Part shown: in pieces, positions 1-42,245 of the stretch
Layout of the letters: every line of letters begins with the position of its first letter
How positions within the stretch are numbered: position 1 is the first letter of the stretch
IMG/VR virus record: IMGVR_UViG_3300022852_000152
Coordinates: 1-42,245 of that record
Direction: 5' to 3' (one strand)
DNA length: 42,245 nucleotides
Source of the DNA: a virus
Taxonomy: Duplodnaviria; Caudoviricetes
The notes under the pieces: model-generated
The model's input: the letters and a program-made list of their open reading frames with translations, nothing else
What the model was told of the DNA's origin: nothing
Databases searched by the model: none
Program-made: the position numbers and the translations under genes

Positions 1-1311
1 ATGACTAGACAAAACCTCACATTCCGTGGCGCCGCCCCCACTTGGGCCAATGCATGCGTAGGAGACAATGGAAGTCCGAGCTATGTTGAGTACGCTCGCG
101 GCTTCTCCAAAGCCGCAAACATACTAACCACAATCGTACTGGAGAATCACTCTACAACCTTAACAACTGATGAGTTTGTTTATCCGATATGCTTCAACAT
201 GCGACATTCAATTGAGCTCCGACTAAAAGGAGCAATTGAATCACTACAAATACTCGCCACACTAAAGGGTGAGCGCTTGCCATTTAACTTAAAAGACACG
301 CACGACCTCAACAAACTCTGGTCATTCTTTAGAACCGAATCAGCCCGAATCGACAATCGCTTCCTGAGAATAGCGTCACAAGTTAACGACACCATTACTG
401 ATATCGCCGACGTAGACCCCACCGGCCAAACATTTCGATATCCGTTTAACACAAAATCTGTAAAACACCTAGCAGATGTCTCCCTCATAAATTTCGCCGT
501 TCTACTCCACAATTTCACTGAGCTTGAAAAAGGTTTAGAAGACCTCTTGAATCTCTATGAATGGCTAATAGAAGAGTACAACCACTCAAACCTCAAAGAA
601 ATCCAGCGCAACATAATTTTCGCAATAGCCCGTAAGCTGCCTAAGCGAGAAGACTGGAGCAACCGAACATTTAATGATATTAAGACACAGCTCAGAGAAG
701 AGTTTTCACTTTCAAGCAATCAGCTCACCAAAGCTATAAATCTCATTGAAAACGACTACTTTCTTTCTCAGCTAATTGGTATAGAAAAGCCTCTACTGGG
801 TATACGCGCCGAGCAGATTGAACTTTTTGTAGCGGCATGGATGGTAGATAATGCAGACCTAAAACAGCACCCTCGACCAGAGCAAGATGAAGAGGACACC
901 AGTTTACTCTCAAGCGCCAATCTTGCGGAATTTCTACGCCGCCCAAGAGCTGACTGGAAATCTATTGAGCACATTGCGACACCAGAATCAACTGCAGGAC
1001 TTCATGCTTTATTTTATTTCGCTTATGACTTCCGCTTCTCAGAATACTACACAAAAATCTATGACCAAAACCTTCGCGAGATGAGCATAATTGCAAACAA
1101 CAGCCCGGAAGAATTGACAAACGAATTACGGCATATTTTTGAAAAGGCGAACTTTATTTATCATCTAATCCAATCGCTTTACATACTGGGCCATGCTTCG
1201 CTAGCAGAAAAGATAATCGCAGAACACGAAATTGAGCATGCCATCAGCTGGTTATCGGAAGCGAGAAAGGGACAGCTCTTGGAGTATCCAGTATACGCTC
1301 AGTACCCTTGA
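1..1311 (+). CDS. Hypothetical protein with N-terminal HEPN-like domain (candidate defence/toxin moron)
   Basis: 436-aa ORF, AT-richer than the phage core. The N-terminal pattern RHSIELRLKG...THDLNKLW...DPTGQTFRYP resembles the E-x-x-LK / HDL / RYP signature of HEPN-fold proteins. No canonical Rx4-6H motif seen. Starts at the window edge. Confidence 0.5.
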   Translation: MTRQNLTFRGAAPTWANACVGDNGSPSYVEYARGFSKAANILTTIVLENHSTTLTTDEFVYPICFNMRHSIELRLKGAIESLQILATLKGERLPFNLKDTHDLNKLWSFFRTESARIDNRFLRIASQVNDTITDIADVDPTGQTFRYPFNTKSVKHLADVSLINFAVLLHNFTELEKGLEDLLNLYEWLIEEYNHSNLKEIQRNIIFAIARKLPKREDWSNRTFNDIKTQLREEFSLSSNQLTKAINLIENDYFLSQLIGIEKPLLGIRAEQIELFVAAWMVDNADLKQHPRPEQDEEDTSLLSSANLAEFLRRPRADWKSIEHIATPESTAGLHALFYFAYDFRFSEYYTKIYDQNLREMSIIANNSPEELTNELRHIFEKANFIYHLIQSLYILGHASLAEKIIAEHEIEHAISWLSEARKGQLLEYPVYAQYP

Positions 1312-1558
1312 TGAATATGAACTAATTCGCACTTCAGATTCATAGTTTGTCATTGGTTCTGCCTAGACGGTACAGCCTACTTCTCGCTCCGGCCCGACAG
1401 GCCGAGCCGGGCTGAGTTACCACGGCTAATCCGCTGGAGTGTTAAGACCAGCGCTGGCGGCCAAGGGGTCGAGGTTCTTCGCTAGGCGCGTCGCAACTGC
1501 CTAGGAGCCACGCCCAGCCTAACACCAGGAATGCCTACCATTTGATCGAGTTACCAGA

Positions 1559-2830
1559 TCAACGAACCTTCCACAGCTGATCAATGCGGGTTGTGTAGGA
1601 GTGGCTCATCATTTCCCGGCGCATCCCCCAGTCGGGGGTGCGGGGGACGGTTGCTGTGTGCATCGTGCCTGTTCCATACTTTCCGTTAATCTGGTCCAGC
1701 ACCGCCATCAGCCGGTCACAGGCCACCGGCTGCGTGACCGCAAACAGATCATCAGTAAACTCACCGGGCTGCCGCAGATCCAGCAGCAGCACCTCTGCCT
1801 TGCTGTATCGGAAACCAGGACGGTAGATCCGCTCAACTGCCTCGGTAGCCGCCCGCGTGAGCAGCAGCGTGTCATTGGTGGGATATGGCAACTCGACCAA
1901 CGCTCCCTGCGCATAGCGAGCCTCATCGGGGTTAAACATGCCGGTGCGGATGCTCACCCGGATGCGCTTGCATACCGACCCCTGAGCACGAAGCTTTTCC
2001 GCTGCGCGCCCGGCGTAGGCGGCCACCGCCTGCTTGATGGGTGCGATCTCGGTCAGGCGCTTGCCGAACATCCGGCTGCAGCAGATCTCCTGCTTCGGCG
2101 GGTCATCCTCCTCGAGCTCGAGGCAAGGGGTGCCGGCGAGCTCCCTGGCCGTCTTCTCGACCACAACGCTGAACTTCTGGCGAAGCGTCCACGGGTCAGC
2201 TTGGGCAAGGTCCATCGCCGTGCGGATCCCCATGGCCTCAAGGTGCGCGGTCATCCGCCTACCAATCCCCCACACTTCCTTGACCTCGGTATTACGCAAC
2301 ACCCAGTCGCGCTTGAAGGAGTCACAGATATCGACCACTCCTCCGGTCTGCGCCTGGAGACGTTTCGCGGTGTGGTTGGCCAGCTTCGCCAAGGTCTTGG
2401 TACGGGCGATCCCAACGCCTACCGGAATGCCGGTGCATCTGAGGATCTTGGCGCGCAGGTCACGGCCGAACTGGGTCAGATTGCCTGGGATGCCGGTGAG
2501 GTCGGCGAAGGACTCATCGATCGAATACACCTCAGCAGCCGGCACCATCGCTTCGATCAGTGACATGACGCGCTCGCTCATGTCGCCATACAGCGCGTAG
2601 TTCGAGGAGAACGCCACGATGCCATGCCGACGCAGCTTGTCTTTGGCCTGAAAGTAAGGCTCACCCATTTTTACGAACGGCTTGGCATCGTAGGATCTGG
2701 CGATCACACAGCCGTCGTTGTTGCTCAGGACGACTATCGGCGTCTTGGCCAGATCAGGCCGAAAGACGCGCTCGCAGCTCGCATAGAACGAGTTACAGTC
2801 GATGAGGGCGAACACTTGGTCATTGGGCAT
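1559..2830 (-). CDS. umuC: DNA polymerase V subunit UmuC (RulB-like Y-family polymerase)
   Basis: ALIDCNSFYASCE, VVLSNNDGCVIARS, YSIDESF and C-terminal W-x-MRREMMSHSYTT motifs; coupled to umuD. Confidence 0.95.
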   Translation of the reverse strand: MPNDQVFALIDCNSFYASCERVFRPDLAKTPIVVLSNNDGCVIARSYDAKPFVKMGEPYFQAKDKLRRHGIVAFSSNYALYGDMSERVMSLIEAMVPAAEVYSIDESFADLTGIPGNLTQFGRDLRAKILRCTGIPVGVGIARTKTLAKLANHTAKRLQAQTGGVVDICDSFKRDWVLRNTEVKEVWGIGRRMTAHLEAMGIRTAMDLAQADPWTLRQKFSVVVEKTARELAGTPCLELEEDDPPKQEICCSRMFGKRLTEIAPIKQAVAAYAGRAAEKLRAQGSVCKRIRVSIRTGMFNPDEARYAQGALVELPYPTNDTLLLTRAATEAVERIYRPGFRYSKAEVLLLDLRQPGEFTDDLFAVTQPVACDRLMAVLDQINGKYGTGTMHTATVPRTPDWGMRREMMSHSYTTRIDQLWKVR

Positions 2831-3269: not shown

Positions 3270-3285
3270 CTGTATATACATACAG
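3270..3285. promoter_or_regulatory. LexA (SOS) box between divergent umuDC and SRAP genes
   Basis: CTGTATATACATACAG = CTGT-N8-ACAG, a near-consensus gammaproteobacterial SOS box. Confidence 0.9.
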
Positions 3286-3353: not shown

Positions 3354-4049
3354 ATGTGTGGGCGGTACTCGATCTACGAAAGCATGGACCACTATCTCCA
3401 GCAATTGTCGCTGGACCTGGTGGTGATCGATGGCTACGACCATGAGCGAATCAACCGCTACAACGTCGCGCCCTCCACCCAAGTCGAGCTGATTCGACCA
3501 GTCGACGGAGGGGTGAGCGTAGATCGAGTGAAATGGGGATGGGCGCCCTTTTGGGCGAAGGCGAAGCGTCCCGACCCGATCAATGCACGGGCCGAGACGG
3601 TAATGACGGGGAAGTTCTTCAAAACGCTGTGGCCGGGAGGCCGGGCTTTGGCGCCTGCGAATGGCTGGTTTGAGTGGATGCCAGATCCCGCTGACCCGAA
3701 ACGCAAGCAGCCCTACTACATCACTGCCGCAAATGACGAGCCCTTGTATTTCGCGGCGCTGGCCGAAGTCCACCCTGGTCTAGAACCAGATGACCGGGAT
3801 GGCTTCGTCATCATCACCGCTGCCGCTGATCAGGGGCTTGTCGATATCCACGACCGCAAGCCGCTTGTTCTCACACCTGCGCTAGCCCGCGAGTGGCTTG
3901 CCCAAGCCACCACGCCCGAACGAGCCGCAGAGATCGTTCGTACAGGCTGCCGGCCAGCTGCCGACTTCAAGTGGTACCCAGTTAGCAAGGAGGTTGGCAA
4001 TGTCAGGAATCAGGGCGAAAACCTAATTCAATCAAAGATCAACGCCTAA
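3354..4049 (+). CDS. SOS response-associated peptidase (SRAP/YedK, abasic-site protecting)
   Basis: N-terminal MCGRY (catalytic Cys2), RYNVAPS, INARAET, GWFEW, IHDRKP; RBS GAGGTG upstream. Confidence 0.95.
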   Translation: MCGRYSIYESMDHYLQQLSLDLVVIDGYDHERINRYNVAPSTQVELIRPVDGGVSVDRVKWGWAPFWAKAKRPDPINARAETVMTGKFFKTLWPGGRALAPANGWFEWMPDPADPKRKQPYYITAANDEPLYFAALAEVHPGLEPDDRDGFVIITAAADQGLVDIHDRKPLVLTPALAREWLAQATTPERAAEIVRTGCRPAADFKWYPVSKEVGNVRNQGENLIQSKINA

Positions 4050-4119
4050 GAATGCCTCATGACAAGGCTCGTACAACCCAACAATCTAAAGTCTTCGTTC
4101 GCCTGGCACGGTCTAAACA

Positions 4120-4574
4120 CCTAGATTTCTTCGCTTGGTTCGTACGATCCAAAACCTAAACCTCCTCGTTTGGTTCGTACGATCCAAAACCTAAACCTCC
4201 TCGTTTGGTTCGTACGATCCAAAACCTAAATTTCTTCGCTTGGTTCGTACGATCCAAAACCTGATCTTCTTCGTTTGGTTCGTTCGATCCCAAACCTAAA
4301 CCTCTTCGTTTGGATCGTACGATCCAAAACCAAAACTTCTTCGTTTGGTTCGTTCGATCCCAAACCTAAACCTCTTCGTTTGGATCGTACGATCCAAAAC
4401 CAAAACTTCTTCGTTTGGTTAGTTCGATGCCAAACCTAAACCTCTTCGTTTGGATCGTACGATCCAAAACCTAAACTTCTTCGCTTGGATCGTACGATCC
4501 AAAACTTAAACTTCTTCGTTTGGATCGTACGATCCAAAACCTAAACCTCTTCGCTTTGTTCGTGCGATCCAAAA
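4120..4574. repeat. Tandem array of 13 x 35-bp units, each with a 20-bp palindrome
   Basis: Exact 35-bp period from 4120, consensus CCTAAACYTCTTCGTTTGGWTCGTACGATCCAAAA. The core TTTGGATCGTACGATCCAAA is its own reverse complement. A degenerate unit lies at 4085-4119 and a partial one at 4575-4580. Confidence 0.98.
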
Positions 4575-4850
4575 TCTAAAGAACTTAAAGCAGCTTCCAA
4601 ACAAATTTAAACCCGGTATTTAAGGGTATGCATCGCACCGGCACATGATGGAAGATTATTTTTTCAATCCGCGCAAACCCGCATTCACAAAGGGCTACAG
4701 CGAATACCCCCTACCTACACCGACCATCATTCAACACCACCCTATTGACGAAAATTTCTAATAAGAAGAATATCTAATTCGCCGTAAGCACATCAAAAAG
4801 TCGACGCCACCTGAATGCGACGCCGCATCCTATCGCCCGGAGAAAGACAC

Positions 4851-4943
4851 ATGATTCAAGTCTACGCAGAGATCGCACTTGAGTTAATCAAATTTATCAA
4901 CAACCTCTTGCTTCAATTTTCGGGGTGCACCCCATGGAGTTAA
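4851..4943 (+). CDS. Putative 30-aa small protein (MIQVYAEIALELIKFINNLLLQFSGCTPWS)
   Basis: ATG at 4851 with GGAGA at 4839-4843; TTGACG at 4745 in an AT-rich upstream region; stop overlaps the MTase stop (TTAA). Too short for the ORF track. Confidence 0.4.
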   Translation: MIQVYAEIALELIKFINNLLLQFSGCTPWS

Positions 4944-5734
4944 AACAGTTGCCCAAGACCGGCAGGCTGCCAGTTCATGATCACCAACTCACCCGTCACC
5001 TCAGCTTTGCACTGCCGTTGGTTCGTGTTGCTGTATCGGATATCCAGGCTTTCGAAGTGGAAACCATCGAACGCCCTGCGGATGTCCGGGTGATCGTTGA
5101 TGCTCACCATCACCCTGCCCTTGCAGCGTCGCATGAAGTCAGCCATGCGCTCGTACTGCTCGAATGGAAAGTCGAGCCCATAGCCGGCGGTCTGCCAGTA
5201 GGGCGGGTCCATGTAGAAAAACGTATGTGCACGATCATAGCGTTCGGCGCAATCGAGCCAGGAGAGGTTCTCGACGTAGGTGCCAGCGAGGCGCTGCCAC
5301 GCAGCTGACAGGTTCTCCTCGATGCGCAGCAGATTGATCGCGGGCCCAGTGGTAGCGGTACCGAACGTCTGCCCGGTGACCTTACCACCGAAAGCATGCT
5401 GCTGGAGGTAGAAGAACCGTGCAGCGCGCTGGATATCGGTCAGCGTCTCGGGGCGGGTCATCTTCTGCCACTCGAAGATCTGCCGCGAGCTGAGCGCCCA
5501 CTTGAACTGGCGCACGAACTCTTCAAGATGGTTTTGGACCACTCGATAAAGCGTGACCAGGTCACCGTTTAGATCGTTGAGCACCTCGACCGGCGCAGGC
5601 TGGGGGCGCATGAAAAACAATGCAGCGCCCCCAGCGAAGACTTCGACGTAGCATTCATGAGGAGGGAAGAGAGGGATCAGGCGGTCGGCCAGGCGGCGTT
5701 TGCCACCCATCCAGGGAATAATTGGAGAGGTCAT
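4940..5734 (-). CDS. Phage DNA adenine methyltransferase (Dam/D12 class)
   Basis: PWMGGKRRL, YVEVFAGGAA (SAM binding), EVLNDLN, FFYMDPPY (catalytic). Target specificity cannot be determined from the sequence. Confidence 0.92.
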   Translation of the reverse strand: MTSPIIPWMGGKRRLADRLIPLFPPHECYVEVFAGGAALFFMRPQPAPVEVLNDLNGDLVTLYRVVQNHLEEFVRQFKWALSSRQIFEWQKMTRPETLTDIQRAARFFYLQQHAFGGKVTGQTFGTATTGPAINLLRIEENLSAAWQRLAGTYVENLSWLDCAERYDRAHTFFYMDPPYWQTAGYGLDFPFEQYERMADFMRRCKGRVMVSINDHPDIRRAFDGFHFESLDIRYSNTNQRQCKAEVTGELVIMNWQPAGLGQLF

Positions 5735-5751: not shown

Positions 5752-5767
5752 CTGTATGAATAAACAG
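5752..5767. promoter_or_regulatory. LexA (SOS) box upstream of the adenine methyltransferase
   Basis: CTGTATGAATAAACAG = CTGT-N8-ACAG, 17 bp upstream of the MTase ATG. Confidence 0.8.
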
Positions 5768-29066: not shown

Positions 29067-31844
29067 TCATGCGGCAAGCCCTTTAACGTGGTCCCAAGCG
29101 TCAACGTTCCATCCAGCAAGCTTCGCACTGGCACGCCATTTGACGACGGTCTTGCCCAGCTCGGCCGCATCTAAGGAAGGGGGCAGGGAAGGATCCCCAT
29201 CACTCGGGAAGAAGAAAGCCGCAAAGCGCCGGTTGTTACCATCGGTCCAAGGGACAGCTCGAGGAGTCTTCTCCACCGTCGCGCTGATCATCAAGGAGAA
29301 CTTGGTCTGACTCATTGAGTGCTCCTTGTTGCGCGAGCACCATTCGATGAAGAGCGCATACACATCGCTGGTGAGACAGCAGCCCCAGAGGTCGTGCCCG
29401 AGTTCGCCTGTGCGCCAAAGACTGAGGAAGGTCTGCCAAGCCGTTCGGCTCAGCGCTACTAGCCGCTGACGGGCCTCGGTTTCAGGCGGCCGAGTGCGCT
29501 GGTCGAACTCACCCAGCTCAATGTTGAGCAGCCAACCGTACAGAGCAGCCACACCGCCGCCAGCCAACTCCCTGCTAATCGCCTTCTGTCGCTCAACCGG
29601 CAGCGTTTCCATTGGCCACATGACCAACATTCGACGGTCGCTATCGCTGATCGGCCAGGGCATGATTTCGTTGCTCAGGAACACCGCGTTCATATGGTTG
29701 GCCTCCTCCCAACCATTGATGAACTTCGATTCCATCCGCACCGTTTTGCCGGTGATCATGTGCTTGATCTTGCCCACTTGGTTGTAACGCTGATCGCGGC
29801 TGACAACTTCCTCGAACACAGCCCAGAGCTTGCCGCTCTGCCAGGCGTTGAAGCTGCCCTCCAACTGCGTCTGACCTACGACTGCGGCGTATTGGCCATA
29901 GAGCGCACCAAGTACATCAGCGAACAGAAGGCTCTTACCTGACCCTTCCATGACCGAGTGCGCCAACACAGCGGTGTCCATCTTGGCCCCCATGTGCTGC
30001 AGCGGATATGCGAGCCACTTCGTCAGCCAATCAACCTCGACCTGGTTATGGTTACAGAGGAACGAAATCAACCAGCGTAGGTTCTCGCAAGCGGCATCAT
30101 CGCGCACCGGCTCAAGGGGTAAACCTTCGAAGGTATTGATGTATTCGTTGGGATCCTTCTTCATCGCGGGGTCAAACACAATGTTGTTAACGTCCACCAC
30201 CCGCCGATCCGGACTATTCAGCCACCACTTGTAGTCCTCCCCGATGGCCATCTTCACGGCGCCTTCAGGGATCCGGCGCTTCTTCTCACAGTCCCAAACA
30301 TCTTTGGTCCCGTCGATGTACACGTAGCGCTCCAGCGGATCGAGCTTCAGCGCCCCACCCTTTTTCGCAGCCATGCGCCGCACCTGATCCAGCTCTTGGG
30401 CTTTCTCGGGCGCGATCAGCTTCTTATCGGTGCGCTCCATCCACGCCTTGGCCACAGGCTTACCCACCAATGCCTCGAATCCAGCCCGCTTCATGGGCTT
30501 TGCCTTATCCAGATCCCACACGCTGGTGGTGCCTTCGATTAAGGCAAAGCGCCGCAGCGCATTCTTGATTTCGGCGCCTTCTTCCCCCGCTCCCCCGTCG
30601 GCCGAGGAGCTGGCCGGGCTGGCTGCTTCGTCTTCCGATGGGGCGTGGGGAAGGTCTGCCGCAATGAGATCGGCCAACTCGTCGAGCGAGACAGCTTGTG
30701 CAGACGCATCATCGGCCGATGGGACGCGGGAAAGCTCACCAATAGGGGGCGGTGATGGCGGGCGCGACTTTGCATCAAGGCCGAGGATCTTGGCAGCTGC
30801 TCTCGTAGCCGCCCGCTGATCTCCACCGTGCATCAGGGTGCAAAACACGTCGAACGCATCATTCTTGTGGCCATTGGCCAACGGATCGGAAGTGTGGTGG
30901 GAGAACAACTTCCCGTCGGTGATTGTTACGCCCGGCATCCCCGAGCTGCTATGCGGGCTAAGCCATTTGCCGTCGATACGCTTGTAACCATGCGCCTCGA
31001 TCATCGTGGCAATGTCATGCCGCCGGTTGAATTCCGGAATGACCTCGGGCAACGGATCGCCTGATCGAAATGCTGGAGCGGGCACTGCGGGCATCGGTCG
31101 AGGCGGTGCCACTGCGGGCATCGGACGCCAAGGGCACACGGCCTCCCCTTTCGGCTTGAATTCATCCCACCCCTGCCAGATGGTCAGCAACTCAGCAGGC
31201 AACTCAGGTAGGCCACCAGCATCCGGCGCCTTGCGCCAGGTGTACGGTTTTCCTGTACCAGGGTGAATGGATGGCGGCAGAACGTCCTGCACCAGGCCAG
31301 CACGCAGTTCGAACACCGTGATTCGCTTGAACGGCTCTGCCGCCATACGGCAGGCGTCCGCTCGCTCTGCATTACCCTCAGCAATCGCGGCCTCGACCTG
31401 AGCCATGATGCCTTTGTAGATCGTACCGTCGGGGTCGTGCTTGTTCGGCCATACCAGGGCATGGCGGCTCAGATCAATACCATCAGGAACACGGAACATC
31501 ACACGAAACCGCGCCGGGTTGCCCACTGATGTCGGGTACGCCGCCGCGATGGCGTCAACGTCGATCCCCAGCACTTGACTGAGGACCATCCGCGTTAGCT
31601 CGACGTCGTCGACATCAAGCGAGCAGACACCACTCGGCCCAAGCACGACACCGAGGTTGTGCTTGGGCCGCTTTGTCCAGAACGCTTCTGCCTCGGCCAC
31701 TTCCGTGAAGTATCCGCCAGGCTTGTTCCAGCCCTTGCCCTTCGGTCCTTTCTCGCCTGGCTCAATAGGCACCAAGGCGAGGCCGAAGGTTTCGATGTAA
31801 CGCCGCGCCCATACAGCGGTGGTCGGTCCTTGACGCTCAGTCAT
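29067..31844 (-). CDS. Bifunctional primase-polymerase fused to SF3 (D5-like) helicase
   Basis: N-terminal Prim-Pol (KGPKGKGW, HNLGVVLG..CSLDVD, VLPPSIHP.TGKPYTW); C-terminal EGSGKS Walker A, VFEEV Walker B, FLSNE, DRR. Confidence 0.88.
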   Translation of the reverse strand: MTERQGPTTAVWARRYIETFGLALVPIEPGEKGPKGKGWNKPGGYFTEVAEAEAFWTKRPKHNLGVVLGPSGVCSLDVDDVELTRMVLSQVLGIDVDAIAAAYPTSVGNPARFRVMFRVPDGIDLSRHALVWPNKHDPDGTIYKGIMAQVEAAIAEGNAERADACRMAAEPFKRITVFELRAGLVQDVLPPSIHPGTGKPYTWRKAPDAGGLPELPAELLTIWQGWDEFKPKGEAVCPWRPMPAVAPPRPMPAVPAPAFRSGDPLPEVIPEFNRRHDIATMIEAHGYKRIDGKWLSPHSSSGMPGVTITDGKLFSHHTSDPLANGHKNDAFDVFCTLMHGGDQRAATRAAAKILGLDAKSRPPSPPPIGELSRVPSADDASAQAVSLDELADLIAADLPHAPSEDEAASPASSSADGGAGEEGAEIKNALRRFALIEGTTSVWDLDKAKPMKRAGFEALVGKPVAKAWMERTDKKLIAPEKAQELDQVRRMAAKKGGALKLDPLERYVYIDGTKDVWDCEKKRRIPEGAVKMAIGEDYKWWLNSPDRRVVDVNNIVFDPAMKKDPNEYINTFEGLPLEPVRDDAACENLRWLISFLCNHNQVEVDWLTKWLAYPLQHMGAKMDTAVLAHSVMEGSGKSLLFADVLGALYGQYAAVVGQTQLEGSFNAWQSGKLWAVFEEVVSRDQRYNQVGKIKHMITGKTVRMESKFINGWEEANHMNAVFLSNEIMPWPISDSDRRMLVMWPMETLPVERQKAISRELAGGGVAALYGWLLNIELGEFDQRTRPPETEARQRLVALSRTAWQTFLSLWRTGELGHDLWGCCLTSDVYALFIEWCSRNKEHSMSQTKFSLMISATVEKTPRAVPWTDGNNRRFAAFFFPSDGDPSLPPSLDAAELGKTVVKWRASAKLAGWNVDAWDHVKGLAA

Positions 31845-32044
31845 CGGCCCCACTCCCGCAGCTCTTGGCAGCTGACGCAGGTTTCACAACCTGCGACAGC
31901 TTGCTGCCGCAGGAGCGGGATCGGCTCGTCGCAGTCGTCGCAGAACTGGGCGCTGGGTTTGGCAACCTTCAGTGTTTGCCGCTTGAGGGACGCCTGAAGG
32001 AAGCACTCCACCAGGTCATTGGCGATATCGGCAGCATCAGCCAT
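31841..32044 (-). CDS. TraR/DksA C4-type zinc finger protein
   Basis: MADAADIAND, CDDCDEPIP.LR, CVSCQE; 67 aa from ATG 32044. Confidence 0.88.
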   Translation of the reverse strand: MADAADIANDLVECFLQASLKRQTLKVAKPSAQFCDDCDEPIPLLRQQAVAGCETCVSCQELREWGR

Positions 32045-37876: not shown

Positions 37877-39130
37877 CTATTGAACGATGCGCATGGTATC
37901 GATCTTAGCTTGCTGCTCCGTTACCCAATCATCATAAGTCTCAATAGAGTACCTCGCGCGCCTGAGCAATTCTTTTGACCTTGCCAAGGCCGACTGGTAA
38001 TCAGCATCATTTTCGGCCAAGAACGTATCCAGGTTAACTCCATTCATGGTCGACTCGAACGCTCGACGAGCTTGCTTAGCAAATGCCCTTTCAACTCGGT
38101 CGCCCGCCCCCCCACCAACACTTGATAAGCCGGTGGGGTCTACTCCAGCAGGCGGCAATCTCGAACACCAAAATGAAATTGATGCCATATCAGGAACTGC
38201 ATCTTTAGACTCCACATGATACATATAAGGCTTATGCATATGAGACTCGCTCTTATAATCACCCGAGAGTAATAAACGCAACTTCCAAATACCAAACGAT
38301 GCAGTGAAGCAGTTCATATGCTGGAGCGAAGTAAGTGTCTCCTGACTCAACTTCATCGGATGAACCGAGGCGGGATCTATCCCCATACGCCCTGTCAGAA
38401 ACTCGATTAACAAATCTGGCGAGACAGCTTCACCAACAGACTTCATCAACTGCAAAAATGCGTCAGCGTCTACTTTCTCCTTGTTGGTGCGAGTAGTTAT
38501 GAAGAACAACCAAGGCTCCGTTCGACAGAAAGCCTGATGCACGAAGAGCTTGTGAATTGCTGTATAAAGACTATTCCAGGTGCCCGGCTTATACCTCGCA
38601 AAAGAGGCGCACAGGTCAATGTTTACAACATCAAATGACTTATGAGGCGCCAACACCTGTTGACTCGCAATAGATTTATCATCACACAAGCTTTCAAACC
38701 GCTCAGTAATCAGCGTACTTTCTTGATCAACGTACTCCAGCGAGCGGACTTCATTTAAGGACAGCGCCTGTTCTGCTAAAGCATCATGGCTATCACCGTC
38801 GATATAATTAAGACCTAGAAATTTGACCTTAACATCCATCTCTGTGCAGACATCTTCAAGGGCACGAATATCCAACAAATCCACACCAGGAAGGCTTAAG
38901 TATCTCAAAGAACGCTTCTGCTTGGACAGCTCTAGGTTACCAATAATGCCCTTAATTAGCACTCCCCATTGTTTATCTCGAATCCACTGTTTCCGAGGTT
39001 TGTGCCATGGGGCAAAGTCGACCTTCAGCATGGGAGCAGTATGGACTGTGACTTTAGGTGCTACACCTTCGAGGAAGGCGGAATCTGATGAAAACGGATC
39101 ATTATCGTCTCTGACGTCCATATCAGTCAC
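37877..39130 (-). CDS. Hypothetical protein with possible SAM-methyltransferase-like fold
   Basis: 417 aa; YLSLPG..LLD and FDVVNIDLC resemble Rossmann strands 1 and 4. The GTG start overlaps the upstream TGA (GTGA). Confidence 0.5.
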   Translation of the reverse strand: MTDMDVRDDNDPFSSDSAFLEGVAPKVTVHTAPMLKVDFAPWHKPRKQWIRDKQWGVLIKGIIGNLELSKQKRSLRYLSLPGVDLLDIRALEDVCTEMDVKVKFLGLNYIDGDSHDALAEQALSLNEVRSLEYVDQESTLITERFESLCDDKSIASQQVLAPHKSFDVVNIDLCASFARYKPGTWNSLYTAIHKLFVHQAFCRTEPWLFFITTRTNKEKVDADAFLQLMKSVGEAVSPDLLIEFLTGRMGIDPASVHPMKLSQETLTSLQHMNCFTASFGIWKLRLLLSGDYKSESHMHKPYMYHVESKDAVPDMASISFWCSRLPPAGVDPTGLSSVGGGAGDRVERAFAKQARRAFESTMNGVNLDTFLAENDADYQSALARSKELLRRARYSIETYDDWVTEQQAKIDTMRIVQ

Positions 39131-41184
39131 TTCCTAATCTCCAGAACCATAACTTCTAGAATGGCTGAAATTAACTCCTCCAGCTTATCCTTCGGCAGGT
39201 AACGATCAACTCCATAAGCACTTAAAATTGAAGCAAGAGCCTTGGCCTTTTCCTCATTAAGAATTTGTTGGACCTTTTCTTTAGGCGTAGAATTCTTAGA
39301 CTTAATAATTGGCGCAAGTGCTTTATCTCTATTAAGCTCAAGCGTAGCAGACTGATCCGAGATAGGAATTTCACTCTGAGCAGGCATCACCCGGTAGATT
39401 ACTTCTTTTGCTGAAATGGGTGCCAGGCCGGCACTCTTTATCTGTTCCGCTACAATATTATGCAGCTCAGCAAATGTTTGATTTTTTCTCTCTTCAAGCG
39501 CACTTCTACTAACCGCACTTGACAAATACTTATGCTTATTCATCAGCTGCCGTAAAGCAGTATGCAGCCAATTCTTGATTATCTGATAGTGGGGATGTGA
39601 AACATTGAAAGACTCTCTGTCGATATTGAGAGCAGCATCCAAACCTTTGATCACAAAAATCTCTGCAGAGATTTGCCGCAACCGTGTCAGTTCGGAAACC
39701 TGATACTTTAAGAAGCTTTCATCAAACAAAGTTCCGCTAGCACCATTAATCCTTATAAGCACGCCATTATGTTCTTTGGGGACAACCTTTTTTGTCCAGT
39801 AAAGATATGCCTCAAACTCTAACTCCCCACCACGATACTGTTCGGGTATCTCACTCAAATCAGGCTTGGCTCTACCTACAAACACTAACGGCTGACTCAC
39901 CGCATGATCAAGAGGCTTAAACTTACCATAGCTCAGGGGGCGATAGAGGCGAACACCATCGACGTACACATTGAATTCAAGGGAGTGGGACTCTCTAGAC
40001 TTTAACTTATAGCGTTGCGCTATAGTCTGATCGCCCTCAAGCATCACATCTACCGCAGCACCGCGGCGTTTGTTATCAATTTGGAAAATTGATGCTCCGT
40101 CGTTACCATCAATATCAAAAGGGTGCTTCTTAAGATATGGCAGCGGCAGAGAGAGGCTCAACACCCACAGCATCCTTAAATAATAATCAAGATGCTCTTG
40201 AGTACTGGGCCCTTTACTGGATCGATCTGTCTCATTTAACGATGATGACAGCTTATCCACCAAGGCACGAAACTTCTCATCCGCAGGTGTATTGTTGTCC
40301 CATGGTAGAACAGAAGGCTTACGAACTAGCCCATGTACAACATCAATTTCACCAATATGGAAAAGTGGCTCACGGATATTGATACCACCTTCAAAACCAT
40401 CATCTTCGAAGGCAACTGCGAGCTCTGCCTCGACCTTTGCTTCATCTTCTTTGGATACGTCGTTTTCCAGCTCGTGCTTTTCTCGTAACGCATCCCAAGT
40501 CATCTTGGAAAGTAGCGATTCCTTAACATGATCACGCAGATCAAGGAGCAAAATTTCGGTCCCATGCGAGTCAACATCATCCGCATCGACAAACTTAATG
40601 TGAACCTCGCCAGTAACAAACTGCTGACCTTCCTCTTTTTCCAGAAGGGCTTCAGACTGAGGCATCAGCAAGATATCACAGTATATCCTCTTATTACTTC
40701 CTTTAACTTTTGAAATAATAACGACATGATGAGTGATCTGGGAGACGGAGAACAAACCAATACCCAGCTTACCGATAAGGGGACGACCTGCTTTACTTTT
40801 AGAAGGATCTTCCTCACTCGAGATCTGGTGGGCTTGCCCTTGCTTGGTGCGCTTTAAGCTTCCGCCTATATGGCAAATCACGTGAGCCAATGTTTCCTTG
40901 GTGAGCCCACGACCATTGTCACGTACGGATATTTTAGAGAACCGTGGAAAATCAGTTTCAACTCTTACTTCTGTCGCGTCGGCATCATATCCATTGGCGA
41001 TTAGCTCACGAAGAGCAGAAGCCGGATCACGATAAATCCCATCCGTGATGCGCGCAAAAACCCGCTCATCGGTCATGAGTCTGGCCTTTACAGTGCCACC
41101 GCTACCAATCGCTTCATCCAGCTTCTCATTGATGAGCGCTTCTGAGTCATCGGTAGCGTCAACTGCATCTAATGAAACGTCCAT
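39127..41184 (-). CDS. GHKL (MORC/Hsp90-like) ATPase
   Basis: LRELIANGYDADA, VRDNGRG, GKLGIG and HGTEI correspond to GHKL motifs I-IV; 685 aa. Confidence 0.88.
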   Translation of the reverse strand: MDVSLDAVDATDDSEALINEKLDEAIGSGGTVKARLMTDERVFARITDGIYRDPASALRELIANGYDADATEVRVETDFPRFSKISVRDNGRGLTKETLAHVICHIGGSLKRTKQGQAHQISSEEDPSKSKAGRPLIGKLGIGLFSVSQITHHVVIISKVKGSNKRIYCDILLMPQSEALLEKEEGQQFVTGEVHIKFVDADDVDSHGTEILLLDLRDHVKESLLSKMTWDALREKHELENDVSKEDEAKVEAELAVAFEDDGFEGGINIREPLFHIGEIDVVHGLVRKPSVLPWDNNTPADEKFRALVDKLSSSLNETDRSSKGPSTQEHLDYYLRMLWVLSLSLPLPYLKKHPFDIDGNDGASIFQIDNKRRGAAVDVMLEGDQTIAQRYKLKSRESHSLEFNVYVDGVRLYRPLSYGKFKPLDHAVSQPLVFVGRAKPDLSEIPEQYRGGELEFEAYLYWTKKVVPKEHNGVLIRINGASGTLFDESFLKYQVSELTRLRQISAEIFVIKGLDAALNIDRESFNVSHPHYQIIKNWLHTALRQLMNKHKYLSSAVSRSALEERKNQTFAELHNIVAEQIKSAGLAPISAKEVIYRVMPAQSEIPISDQSATLELNRDKALAPIIKSKNSTPKEKVQQILNEEKAKALASILSAYGVDRYLPKDKLEELISAILEVMVLEIRK

Positions 41185-41195
41185 GTATCTCCCCT

Positions 41196-42245
41196 TTAAA
41201 AAAGGAACTCTTTAAAACACTTGGCCAGTGCTGCTGCCACAGGCGGAGGCACCGCGTTAGAAATTTGCTTCACTTGGGCACTCAAAGTCCCCATCAGTCT
41301 ATAGCTATCTGGGAACCCCTGCAGCTTCATAGCCTCATAAATGCTCAACCTACGATGTCCGTCGGGATGGACGTGAATCTCCCTGTTACCGTAAGCAACC
41401 GTCCGACTGGGCCTTTTCCAATCTAGCTTAATGAATGAGCGCCCACCAGCGGGCATTTCTCCCGTCAAGAATCGTTTTGACTTTGGCTTCATCGTCCAGT
41501 GATTAGGATGGAATGGTATAGCATCGCTAATATTTTCACGGCTGTAGTAAACTGGTTGCGGAAAACCAAATATCTCGTCCTCTACAGTCCTGAATGTTTT
41601 AACTTTCGCCTCAGGAAAAGTGAATATCCCTGTCTTTTTTACATCCTTGCTAATCCCCGCAATAAAATACCTCTTGCGATGCTGAGCAACACCAAAGCCT
41701 GATGAGTTGATTTCCTCCTCATATATAATAAAATTTTTTGAAAGGCTTGCACGAAGCATTTCCAAAAAATCTACATTCTTCTTCGCCAAAATTTCAGGAA
41801 CATTCTCAAACAAAAAGAATTTTATCTTTGATTTCTTATAGAAGTAATTAACGATTTCCGCATACTTAACGGCGAGCTGATTTCTGGGATCACTATGACA
41901 CCTGCCCGTATTAGCTCTTGAAAAGCCTTGGCAGGGAGGCCCACCAATAATGCCGTGGATAGCGCCCTCAAAGCCGGGCTCAAGCACGGAGCGCCTGTAG
42001 AGCTCTTCAGGTGACGTCTCCAGCAAATCGACCTTCGAAGCCCTTTGCCCTGGATGGTTATGATTATAGGTCTCCACAGCGTAGCGATCGTGATCAGCAG
42101 CGAAAGCAACATCAAACCCAGCATCAATGAACCCCAGGTCCAATCCACCAGCCCCGCAAAAAAGGCTAACCAGCTTGGGCTGCTGCGAAGCAGGACCGCT
42201 CTCGGAGCGCGCCCACTGCAGGCACTCCGATCCATTTTTACTCAT
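41196..42245 (-). CDS. DNA cytosine-5 methyltransferase
   Basis: LFCGAGG, GGPPCQGFS, FENVP, QHRKR, RRLSIYEAMKLQGFP, QISNAVPP: complete motif set. Start is at the window edge. Confidence 0.95.
   Translation of the reverse strand: MSKNGSECLQWARSESGPASQQPKLVSLFCGAGGLDLGFIDAGFDVAFAADHDRYAVETYNHNHPGQRASKVDLLETSPEELYRRSVLEPGFEGAIHGIIGGPPCQGFSRANTGRCHSDPRNQLAVKYAEIVNYFYKKSKIKFFLFENVPEILAKKNVDFLEMLRASLSKNFIIYEEEINSSGFGVAQHRKRYFIAGISKDVKKTGIFTFPEAKVKTFRTVEDEIFGFPQPVYYSRENISDAIPFHPNHWTMKPKSKRFLTGEMPAGGRSFIKLDWKRPSRTVAYGNREIHVHPDGHRRLSIYEAMKLQGFPDSYRLMGTLSAQVKQISNAVPPPVAAALAKCFKEFLF

Follow-up and report, generated by a model that had tools for sequence, protein, structure and literature searches.

Does an array of 13 closely similar 35-bp units, lodged between two genes of a prophage, stand on its own or belong to something larger, and what would recognize it? 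The preliminary description of this locus had presented the array as lacking an obvious partner and had offered three readings: an RNA processed into hairpin units that acts as a decoy or antitoxin, a set of DNA sites for a dimeric protein, and a cruciform-forming tract.

The array within the prophage

The window, by which we mean the whole stretch of 42,245 nucleotides that was analysed, is a complete provirus record. Its gene set is of Pseudomonas type, with umuC/umuD and a SRAP gene at the left, a D12 adenine methyltransferase gene, lysis genes, a P2-like tail, a lambda-like head, a primase-helicase, a repressor and an integrase, and from this gene content and from relatives we infer Pseudomonas as the host genus. 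The array shares an AT-rich insert (44% GC, against 60% GC for the prophage) with a short peptide ORF, whose stop overlaps that of the methyltransferase gene (Table 1). The LexA-box-like sites were located by a pattern based on the LexA consensus.

Table 1. Features in and around the slot that holds the array (positions in the window)
Feature	Position	Strand	Basis or remark
LexA-box-like site near SRAP gene	3270-3285		pattern search
SRAP (HMCES/YedK-like) gene	3354..4049	+	PF02586; left boundary of cargo slot
Two eroded units, left edge of array	4063-4082 and 4098-4117	.	13/20 matches each; spacing 35 and 36 bp
Array, 13 x 35-bp units (15-bp linker + 20-bp palindrome each)	4119..4573	.	repeat analysis
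Promoter-like site	4745..4773	+	inferred; -35 TTGACG at 4745-4750, weak -10 candidate GAATAT at 4768-4773
Terminator-like hairpin inside peptide leader	4802..4825	-	G-U pairs form only on minus strand
30-aa hydrophobic, amphipathic peptide ORF	4851..4943	+	GGAGA RBS at 4839-4843; predicted type I-like toxin
D12-class adenine methyltransferase gene	4940..5734	-	PF02086, PADLOC MTase_II; right boundary of slot
LexA-box-like site before methyltransferase gene	5752-5767		pattern search

All 13 units are in register, with 87% matches and 0% indels, and no second tandem array occurs within the window. Most of the preliminary account of the array holds: the 13 units at an exact 35-bp period without indels are found at 4119-4573, inspection of the units gives perfect palindromes in units 6, 8, 10 and 12, the linkers are conserved between units so that there are no unique spacers, and stops in every frame of both strands leave no ORF, which also rejects a hidden coding repeat. 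The start proposed for the array, 4085, does not stand, since the 13 intact units begin at 4119 and 4085 falls within a stretch of two eroded units to their left; a 13/20 match of the kind seen in these units recurs at 4 of 35,840 other plus-strand positions of the prophage. At palindrome position 6 the majority base is T (8/13 units), so the perfect palindrome is the minority form.

An identical array is present in metagenome contig L097, which is possibly the source or a sister assembly and thus not independent of the window, and unitigs from runs X1, X2 and X3 cover pieces of the array without mismatch, none spanning the whole. Given these copies, the earlier concern about an assembly artefact does not apply in the sense of an assembly-only array; the copy number of 13 is the assembled count, with no record spanning the array. 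Runs labelled as RNA (X2-X4) yield contigs of 63-71 kb that cover genes and intergenic DNA alike, and therefore look like DNA and give no indication of expression.

Exact-pattern scans detected no relatives of the array in viral contigs, one unrelated archaeal repeat in 185,579 species genomes, and five loci in metagenomes, namely the identical copy and four low-complexity repeats. A periodic-pattern search gave 12 repeats, all unrelated to the array, and a profile match in L021 was set aside as it lies in a gene start and is unrepeated. The BLASTN search proposed in the preliminary description was negative for phages, with nothing at E 0.01 among 50,697 phage records and only four weak chance matches at E 10. 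A BLAST search of plasmids gave seven records at E 10. Taken alone, the rarity of the array would fit a repeat confined to a single strain, the sign by which a neutral repeat was to be known.

Elsewhere in the window, a fused primase-polymerase/helicase gene for replication (29067-31853, minus strand) is combined with the lambda-like head and P2-like contractile tail. Directly past the integrase, positions 37877-42245 (minus strand) code for a C5 cytosine methyltransferase, a 685-aa GHKL-ATPase protein with weak matches to type II restriction enzymes, and a 417-aa ORF without a family, a locus at the prophage edge that appears restriction-modification-like. An ORF of 436-443 aa without a Pfam, PHROG or PADLOC family is found at 1-1311 (plus strand) of the window and at 546-1787 (plus strand) of L097, and is preceded by a HEPN/RES-domain gene that lies outside the window; the two genes point to a possible defence island around the prophage.

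The array heads a conserved cassette

Loci for comparison were taken from viral contigs through the best 80 of 167 SRAP relatives and the best 80 of 599 confirmed methyltransferase relatives (about 1,900 estimated). The gap between the two genes is 6-36 bp in 29 of the 77 loci that have both, some of which are duplicates; the others hold cargo. This slot (L013-L180) is a cargo hot spot that takes up small genes, toxin-antitoxin-like pairs and multi-gene inserts of up to 4.3 kb.

The view that the array has no partner is not upheld, as its right flank contains, at 170-370 bp, a promoter-like site and an ORF of 30 codons. Ten slots, including that of the window, follow one layout of repeat tract, AT-rich spacer, TTGAC hexamer, short leader, RBS and a hydrophobic ORF of 20-34 aa that ends at the methyltransferase stop. 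Among 91 de-duplicated SRAP/methyltransferase loci, ten have the peptide and non-triplet repeats, one has the peptide only, two have repeats only and 78 have neither (L073 and L177 are one contig, which makes 9 of 90 with both); Fisher and Rayleigh p-values are inflated because the cassettes are related and because the peptide profile had been seeded from repeat-bearing slots.

In view of this seeding, two further scans were made without gene information. An 8-mer repeat-only scan returned 54 loci, 18 of them beside SRAP or the methyltransferase, and the peptide is in place in all 18 (the profile detects 17 and inspection by eye adds L230; 12 are new and 6 are re-finds or duplicates). A 16-base box-only scan returned 34 loci, and the 17 with two or more boxes consist of 12 cassettes (7 new), four protelomerase neighbours and one contig end, while the 17 single-box loci are neither cassettes nor protelomerase neighbours. 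This brings the cassettes to 30, that of the window and 29 further ones, some of them close kin, of which 23 form the set described below and 7 more enter the spacing analysis. In all cassettes observed, the array precedes the peptide promoter; in L145 the peptide stands without repeats and without a known site. One sister cassette searched against phage records gave no match. Judged by this comparison, the array forms the variable upstream part of a conserved cassette whose last element is a small predicted peptide gene.

Promoter, leader and peptide

All 23 cassettes have a TTGAC hexamer 95-290 bp ahead of the peptide start, and 18/23 conform to TTGAC-N18-TAnnnT, a pattern that the weak -10 of the window falls outside; a simple promoter scan did not call the promoter-like site of the window. 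The minus-strand hairpin in the leader of the window would end methyltransferase read-through antisense to the peptide ORF. Across the set, minus-strand terminators occur in only 5/23 cassettes and, after shuffling, the minus strand folds better than the plus strand in only 15/23, with no consistent strand bias, and a family-wide antisense antitoxin is not supported. Terminator-like plus-strand hairpins precede the RBS in five of the 23 (L151, L152, L207, L233 and L141), the one in L141 scoring on both strands, and the leaders of L141 and L185 are about 250 nt long. These plus-strand hairpins suggest attenuation or a short leader RNA.

The peptides are 20-34 aa long, with a best 17-residue Kyte-Doolittle mean of 1.25-2.39, and are mostly amphipathic (moment 0.33-0.82). 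Sister peptides are only 17-32% identical to that of the window, and the cassette peptides may represent several families. No peptide has a Pfam match, and the 11 members compared with NCBIfam have none there; the exact peptide of the window is absent from a collection of 15 billion sequences. A profile search of 1.84 billion representative proteins gave five matches, of which the four looked up are family-like and unnamed or hypothetical, and in Atlas a sister peptide reached one unnamed cluster with a score of 0.76, below the lead threshold.

The palindrome matches a plasmid SprT box

The second of the earlier readings, DNA sites for a dimeric protein, is supported and becomes specific here, in that the palindrome matches a site at plasmid sprT promoters. 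Its form, TTTGG(A/T)T-core-A(A/T)CCAAA, is present in the units of the window, and two of the seven plasmid records contain exact copies: one of 22 bp in Agarilytica plasmid pSU3, 12 nt before the start of an SprT-like protease gene, and one of 21 bp in a Rhodanobacter plasmid with no sprT gene in the 8 kb examined. Plasmid pVIM-20710 carries two variant copies, 33 bp apart, ahead of its SprT-like gene, and this segment matches 165 plasmid records, 13 of them from Pseudomonas. In eight of the nine plasmids examined, which include five that match the pVIM-20710 segment and one Xanthomonas match, the SprT box directly precedes a sprT gene, operon or remnant; the non-exact boxes have 2-4 mismatches to the window palindrome, and in pPL2 the box pair overlaps a -35/17 bp/-10 promoter. 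Other copies on the plasmids are located in the direction of mobC, behind stbC or ahead of small regulator genes, and 2/9 of the viral-contig matches to the box precede sprT. The plasmid search with the Xanthomonas match gave 148 records, 141 of them from Bacillus, and those listed share one partial in-gene match.

The exact CGTACG core is confined to the Agarilytica and Rhodanobacter plasmids among those examined, and the four Pseudomonas plasmids examined have variants with a TGTACA or TGYRCA core. The A/T variation at array position 6 recurs there or at its mirror position in two Pseudomonas plasmids. A restriction-site decoy was rejected, as the remainder of the prophage shows no depletion of GATC, GTAC or CGTACG. 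The fixed unit length had been taken earlier as a hint of selection on spacing; the 16-23 substitution events and zero indels in the history of the array, which shows two-unit duplications, are too few to show this, and native box pairs, spaced 22-34 bp and not 35, lend it no support either.

A SprT-like gene is absent from the window, which makes its copies orphan sites. As sprT is the one gene common to nearly all box-bearing plasmids compared, the SprT-like protein or a co-inherited factor likely binds the box. KorA-like proteins were rejected as binders because no box precedes their genes in the plasmids scanned, and the 76-aa gene that precedes sprT in the Xanthomonas plasmid is without relatives in the eight others. 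The available text of PMC7414963 treats mpR as a gene of unassigned function, and a literature search over titles and abstract openings, with few subscription journals, yielded no description of a sprT operator.

An Aliivibrio plasmid (L093 4926-5345, NZ_LR721753.1) has an iteron-like array of twelve 34-bp units upstream of an RctB-like replication gene, with single core copies nearer to that gene. It matches the window unit at 67% without the palindrome and has no relatives among plasmid records, for which reasons its likeness to the window array is probably due to chance. In another prophage (L254 1780-2560), an AT-rich insert between a umuC-like gene and SRAP includes one SprT box, other short palindromes and a short ORF with a hydrophobic start, the box lying downstream of that ORF; this insert is possibly a rearranged relative.

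Sister cassettes carry other foreign sites

The KorB operator occurs in 7/23 cassettes and not once in 1,161,885 bases of other loci. It is always present as a single copy per cassette, and six of the seven sites match the 15-base form, five of them exactly, with the operator sequence as given in the available text of PMC11790492. A family search of the window ORFs detected no korB.

A second type of site consists of 8-bp repeats that match those that flank the parA promoter and precede the small partner gene in a group of Pseudomonas-like phages, and also those beside parA/RHH pairs in Erwinia and Klebsiella plasmids (BLAST E 0.03 to 1, weak alone). The tetramer boxes with AT-rich spacers of TP228 parH have the same 8-bp period in the accessible part of PMC3130281. 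In Pseudomonas-like phage contigs (L184, L189, L196, L210/L211, L221, L228/L229, L231, L232 and L234), inverted 8-bp arrays flank the parA promoter and a small partner gene, and these contigs bear further arrays elsewhere. None of the window ORFs scanned is a parA/parB, ParG or ParM/ParR gene, and the array was ruled out as the phage's own partition centromere since partition genes do not adjoin it; the phage has an integrase.

A third type is a 32-bp repeat containing a box that also occurs in linear Pseudomonas phage-plasmids, where it flanks the telomere next to the protelomerase gene. This box occurs in 7/23 cassettes and in none of the background loci, and several cassettes combine par-type 8-mers with telomere boxes. 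L207 holds about 35 plus 9 repeat copies. Other motifs recur in smaller groups: GATATCC repeats in L089, L195, L208, L220 and L233, an inverted motif of the GCGAACGC type in L017, L141 and L185, TACGTA-containing 8-mers in L062, L182, L192 and L230, and TTTGTAC-type tracts in L062 and L195.

The telomere boxes also have a regular placement. In 15 cassettes their spacings are 31, 32 or 41 bp in 24/24 cases, corresponding to three or four helical turns, and the distances from box to -35 hexamer, 19 distinct values between 51 and 176 bp, fall into a single helical phase (R = 0.79 at 10.5 bp). Native spacings of the same box include 23, 24, 28, 35, 40 and 46 bp. The cassette lineages differ from one another by whole turns, although they are related and the p-value is inflated by this kinship. 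In the window, the 35-bp repeat amounts to 3.33 turns, so the units do not lie on one helical face, and the nearest unit is 191 bp from the -35 hexamer. Placement on one helical face, 50-180 bp ahead of a promoter whose spacer is suboptimal, is more typical of activation.

Proposed function and alternatives

Comparison of the cassettes shows that foreign-element sites, a promoter-like sequence and a peptide ORF form a fixed module, in which the sites appear to be exchangeable. For this module we propose, as a prediction throughout that we hold to be evenly balanced, a tripwire that would be set off when proteins of an invading element occupy the copied sites, freeing a type I-like toxin. The array would be the sensor half of the prophage cassette, and a plasmid-coded protein, possibly the SprT-like protein itself, would dock on the palindrome of the window. 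At rest the peptide promoter would be quiet, most simply owing to silencing of the AT-rich insert by MvaT/H-NS-family proteins and to the suboptimal 18-bp spacer, and upstream occupancy would switch it on through counter-silencing or DNA bending, so that unrelated proteins could all act as triggers. In principle, counter-silencing can be brought about by an arbitrary bound protein, according to the available text of PMC12239563. The peptide, a predicted membrane toxin, would then stall or kill the invaded lysogen. In the window, the LexA-box-like site before the methyltransferase gene and the minus-strand terminator would together give an SOS-induced antisense transcript across the peptide ORF, and such methyltransferase read-through may spare the phage during its own induction.

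Three considerations favour toxin activation: a single KorB site makes a poor sponge but can serve as a sensor, helical phasing implies that the sites act on the promoter, and only an indirect route can be common to unrelated proteins. The mimicked proteins, KorB and ParG-like proteins, are known as repressors, and activation by them therefore needs such a route. Against the tripwire stand the two of 91 loci that have repeats without the peptide, the peptide of L145 without a repeat, and, in the window, a weak -10 off the family pattern and units that are unphased.

In its broader form, which we advance more tentatively, DNA itself would serve as the immunity sensor, with swappable operators, centromeres and telomere boxes on the face of a toxin promoter that trip abortive arrest. 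If so, new specificities would arise as further binding sites are captured and amplified, and the site library would be a protein-free record of past invaders. To our knowledge, known defence sensors are proteins or guide RNAs. The apparent recognition element of the cassette is instead DNA taken over from the invader, which phages can exchange while keeping the promoter-peptide unit in place. A cassette that works as proposed would provide compact protection against plasmids and phage-plasmids, with specificity changed in a new way, and its targets would be maintenance proteins that are hard to change: KorB of broad-host-range plasmids, partition proteins and protelomerase-region binders. It would also offer a direct handle on the binder and role of a widespread plasmid SprT box. 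Gene-based defence mining misses cassettes whose only ORF has 20-34 codons.

An unlikely alternative, which nonetheless accounts for part of the data, is that the copies form a sponge or incompatibility site which titrates the repressors or partition proteins of the invader, so that costly genes are derepressed or the element is mis-segregated and lost, with the peptide as a separate passenger. High copy numbers, 13 in the window and about 35 plus 9 in L207, suit titration; centromeres express incompatibility (Dam and Gerdes 1994, as cited in the available text of PMC5016525); and the unphased units of the window and the array-free peptide of L145 point the same way. It leaves unexplained why the sites are almost always linked to the peptide, why each cassette with a KorB site has only one, and why telomere boxes are phased to the -35 hexamer. 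Even if the array is a sponge, prophage-borne mimics of plasmid cis-sites appear undescribed in the literature searched.

Rather improbable in our estimate is that the sites do control the promoter and that binding represses it, or that the peptide is non-toxic. A labile inhibitor could be lost, for instance, a signal could tip the prophage to induce, or a membrane peptide could block entry. The sites are repressor operators in their native setting, and KorB silences promoters at a distance in the portion of PMC11790492 available. A non-toxic peptide would agree with the lack of a toxin-family match and with the terminator-like plus-strand hairpins before the RBS in 5/23 cassettes, by which a short RNA may be the main product. 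Repression is countered by the face-of-helix placement with a suboptimal spacer and by the fact that the search for a downstream target gave no candidate, and a non-toxic role by the size, hydrophobicity and amphipathic moment of the peptides, which fit type I toxins. That the array is a neutral relic without a present role, left by a plasmid promoter fragment that was captured and then multiplied through slippage or unequal exchange, agrees with its two-unit duplications, its eroded edges and the restriction of the exact array to the window and one identical copy; at least five unrelated site types before the same kind of gene, absent from background, make this improbable.

An RNA decoy or antitoxin processed into 35-nt hairpins is very improbable. 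Both strands do form far more stable folds than shuffled sequences (z about -11 and -10), which self-complementary units in an array would produce in any case, but pair-breaking substitutions are uncompensated, Rfam at gathering thresholds gives 0 matches for the array, a simple promoter scan calls no promoter into it, a cognate nuclease gene is lacking and the palindrome is already explained as a double-stranded operator. The first of the earlier readings is thus left without support, and the third, the cruciform tract, is unnecessary.

Comparison with known systems

Among RNA-based systems, ToxI and pseudo-ToxI repeats and RNA anti-CRISPRs have units of 34-36 nt, like those of the array. The array differs from them in having no Rfam match, no ToxN or Cas gene and no compensatory changes, its unit being a copy of a plasmid operator. 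The search of the window confirmed the earlier statement that it holds no cas or ToxN gene. For type III toxin-antitoxin systems (ToxIN/CptIN/TenpIN), no endoribonuclease gene lies directly downstream of the repeats, and a CRISPR array or RNA anti-CRISPR was rejected on the conserved linkers together with the Rfam and cas results. A VIPR vrRNA was rejected as well, since tandem GGYNN is absent and at most 12/90 pentamers conform in any register. The VIPR solo vrRNAs and decoy REP sites, as far as the available text of their description goes (10.64898/2026.10.15.759431), are likewise non-coding repeats in a mobile-element conflict with a decoy logic; the array is without a GGYNN register and reads as double-stranded DNA sites rather than guide RNA.

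Partition centromeres offer likenesses in form. The 8-bp-period repeats of the sister cassettes resemble the type Ib centromere TP228 parH (PMC3130281), and the window, with a short inverted repeat inside longer direct repeats, is laid out like the type Ia array F sopC (PMC5016525), both as presented in the accessible portions of these sources. The window differs from both in having no partition genes and in a palindrome that maps to sprT promoters and not to par loci. The KorB operator O_B of IncP-1/IncU plasmids, in the available text of PMC11790492 and PMC7414963, is the same 13-15-bp palindrome as that in 7/23 sister cassettes. O_B belongs to the plasmid backbone, whereas in the sisters it lies within the prophage cargo slot; it is absent from the cassette of the window.

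The promoter-peptide unit is closest to type I toxin-antitoxin systems, which also have a small hydrophobic ORF with an RBS. Type I toxins of the DinQ/TisB/Ibs kind are hydrophobic, amphipathic single helices of 20-35 aa with a structured leader, possible antisense control and an SOS context. By analogy, the cassette resembles them in peptide size, amphipathic helix and structured leader, and differs in that its peptides match no described toxin family and no conserved antisense RNA was found among 23 cassettes. We know of no type I toxin system with an upstream array of foreign operators.

In satellites and mobilisable islands such as SGI1/AcaCD, and in PICI derepression, DNA sites of one element read the protein of another, which is also what we propose, by analogy, for the cassette. 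In SGI1/AcaCD and PICI the site answers one cognate activator and triggers excision, whereas in the cassette many unrelated repressor, partition and telomere sites appear interchangeable before a peptide gene. A literature search over titles and abstract openings, with few subscription journals, yielded no description of such a cassette. By analogy, the cassette family, with a mechanism proposed from its sequence, combines the traits of a type I toxin locus with those of a helper-sensing promoter, belonging in full to neither class.
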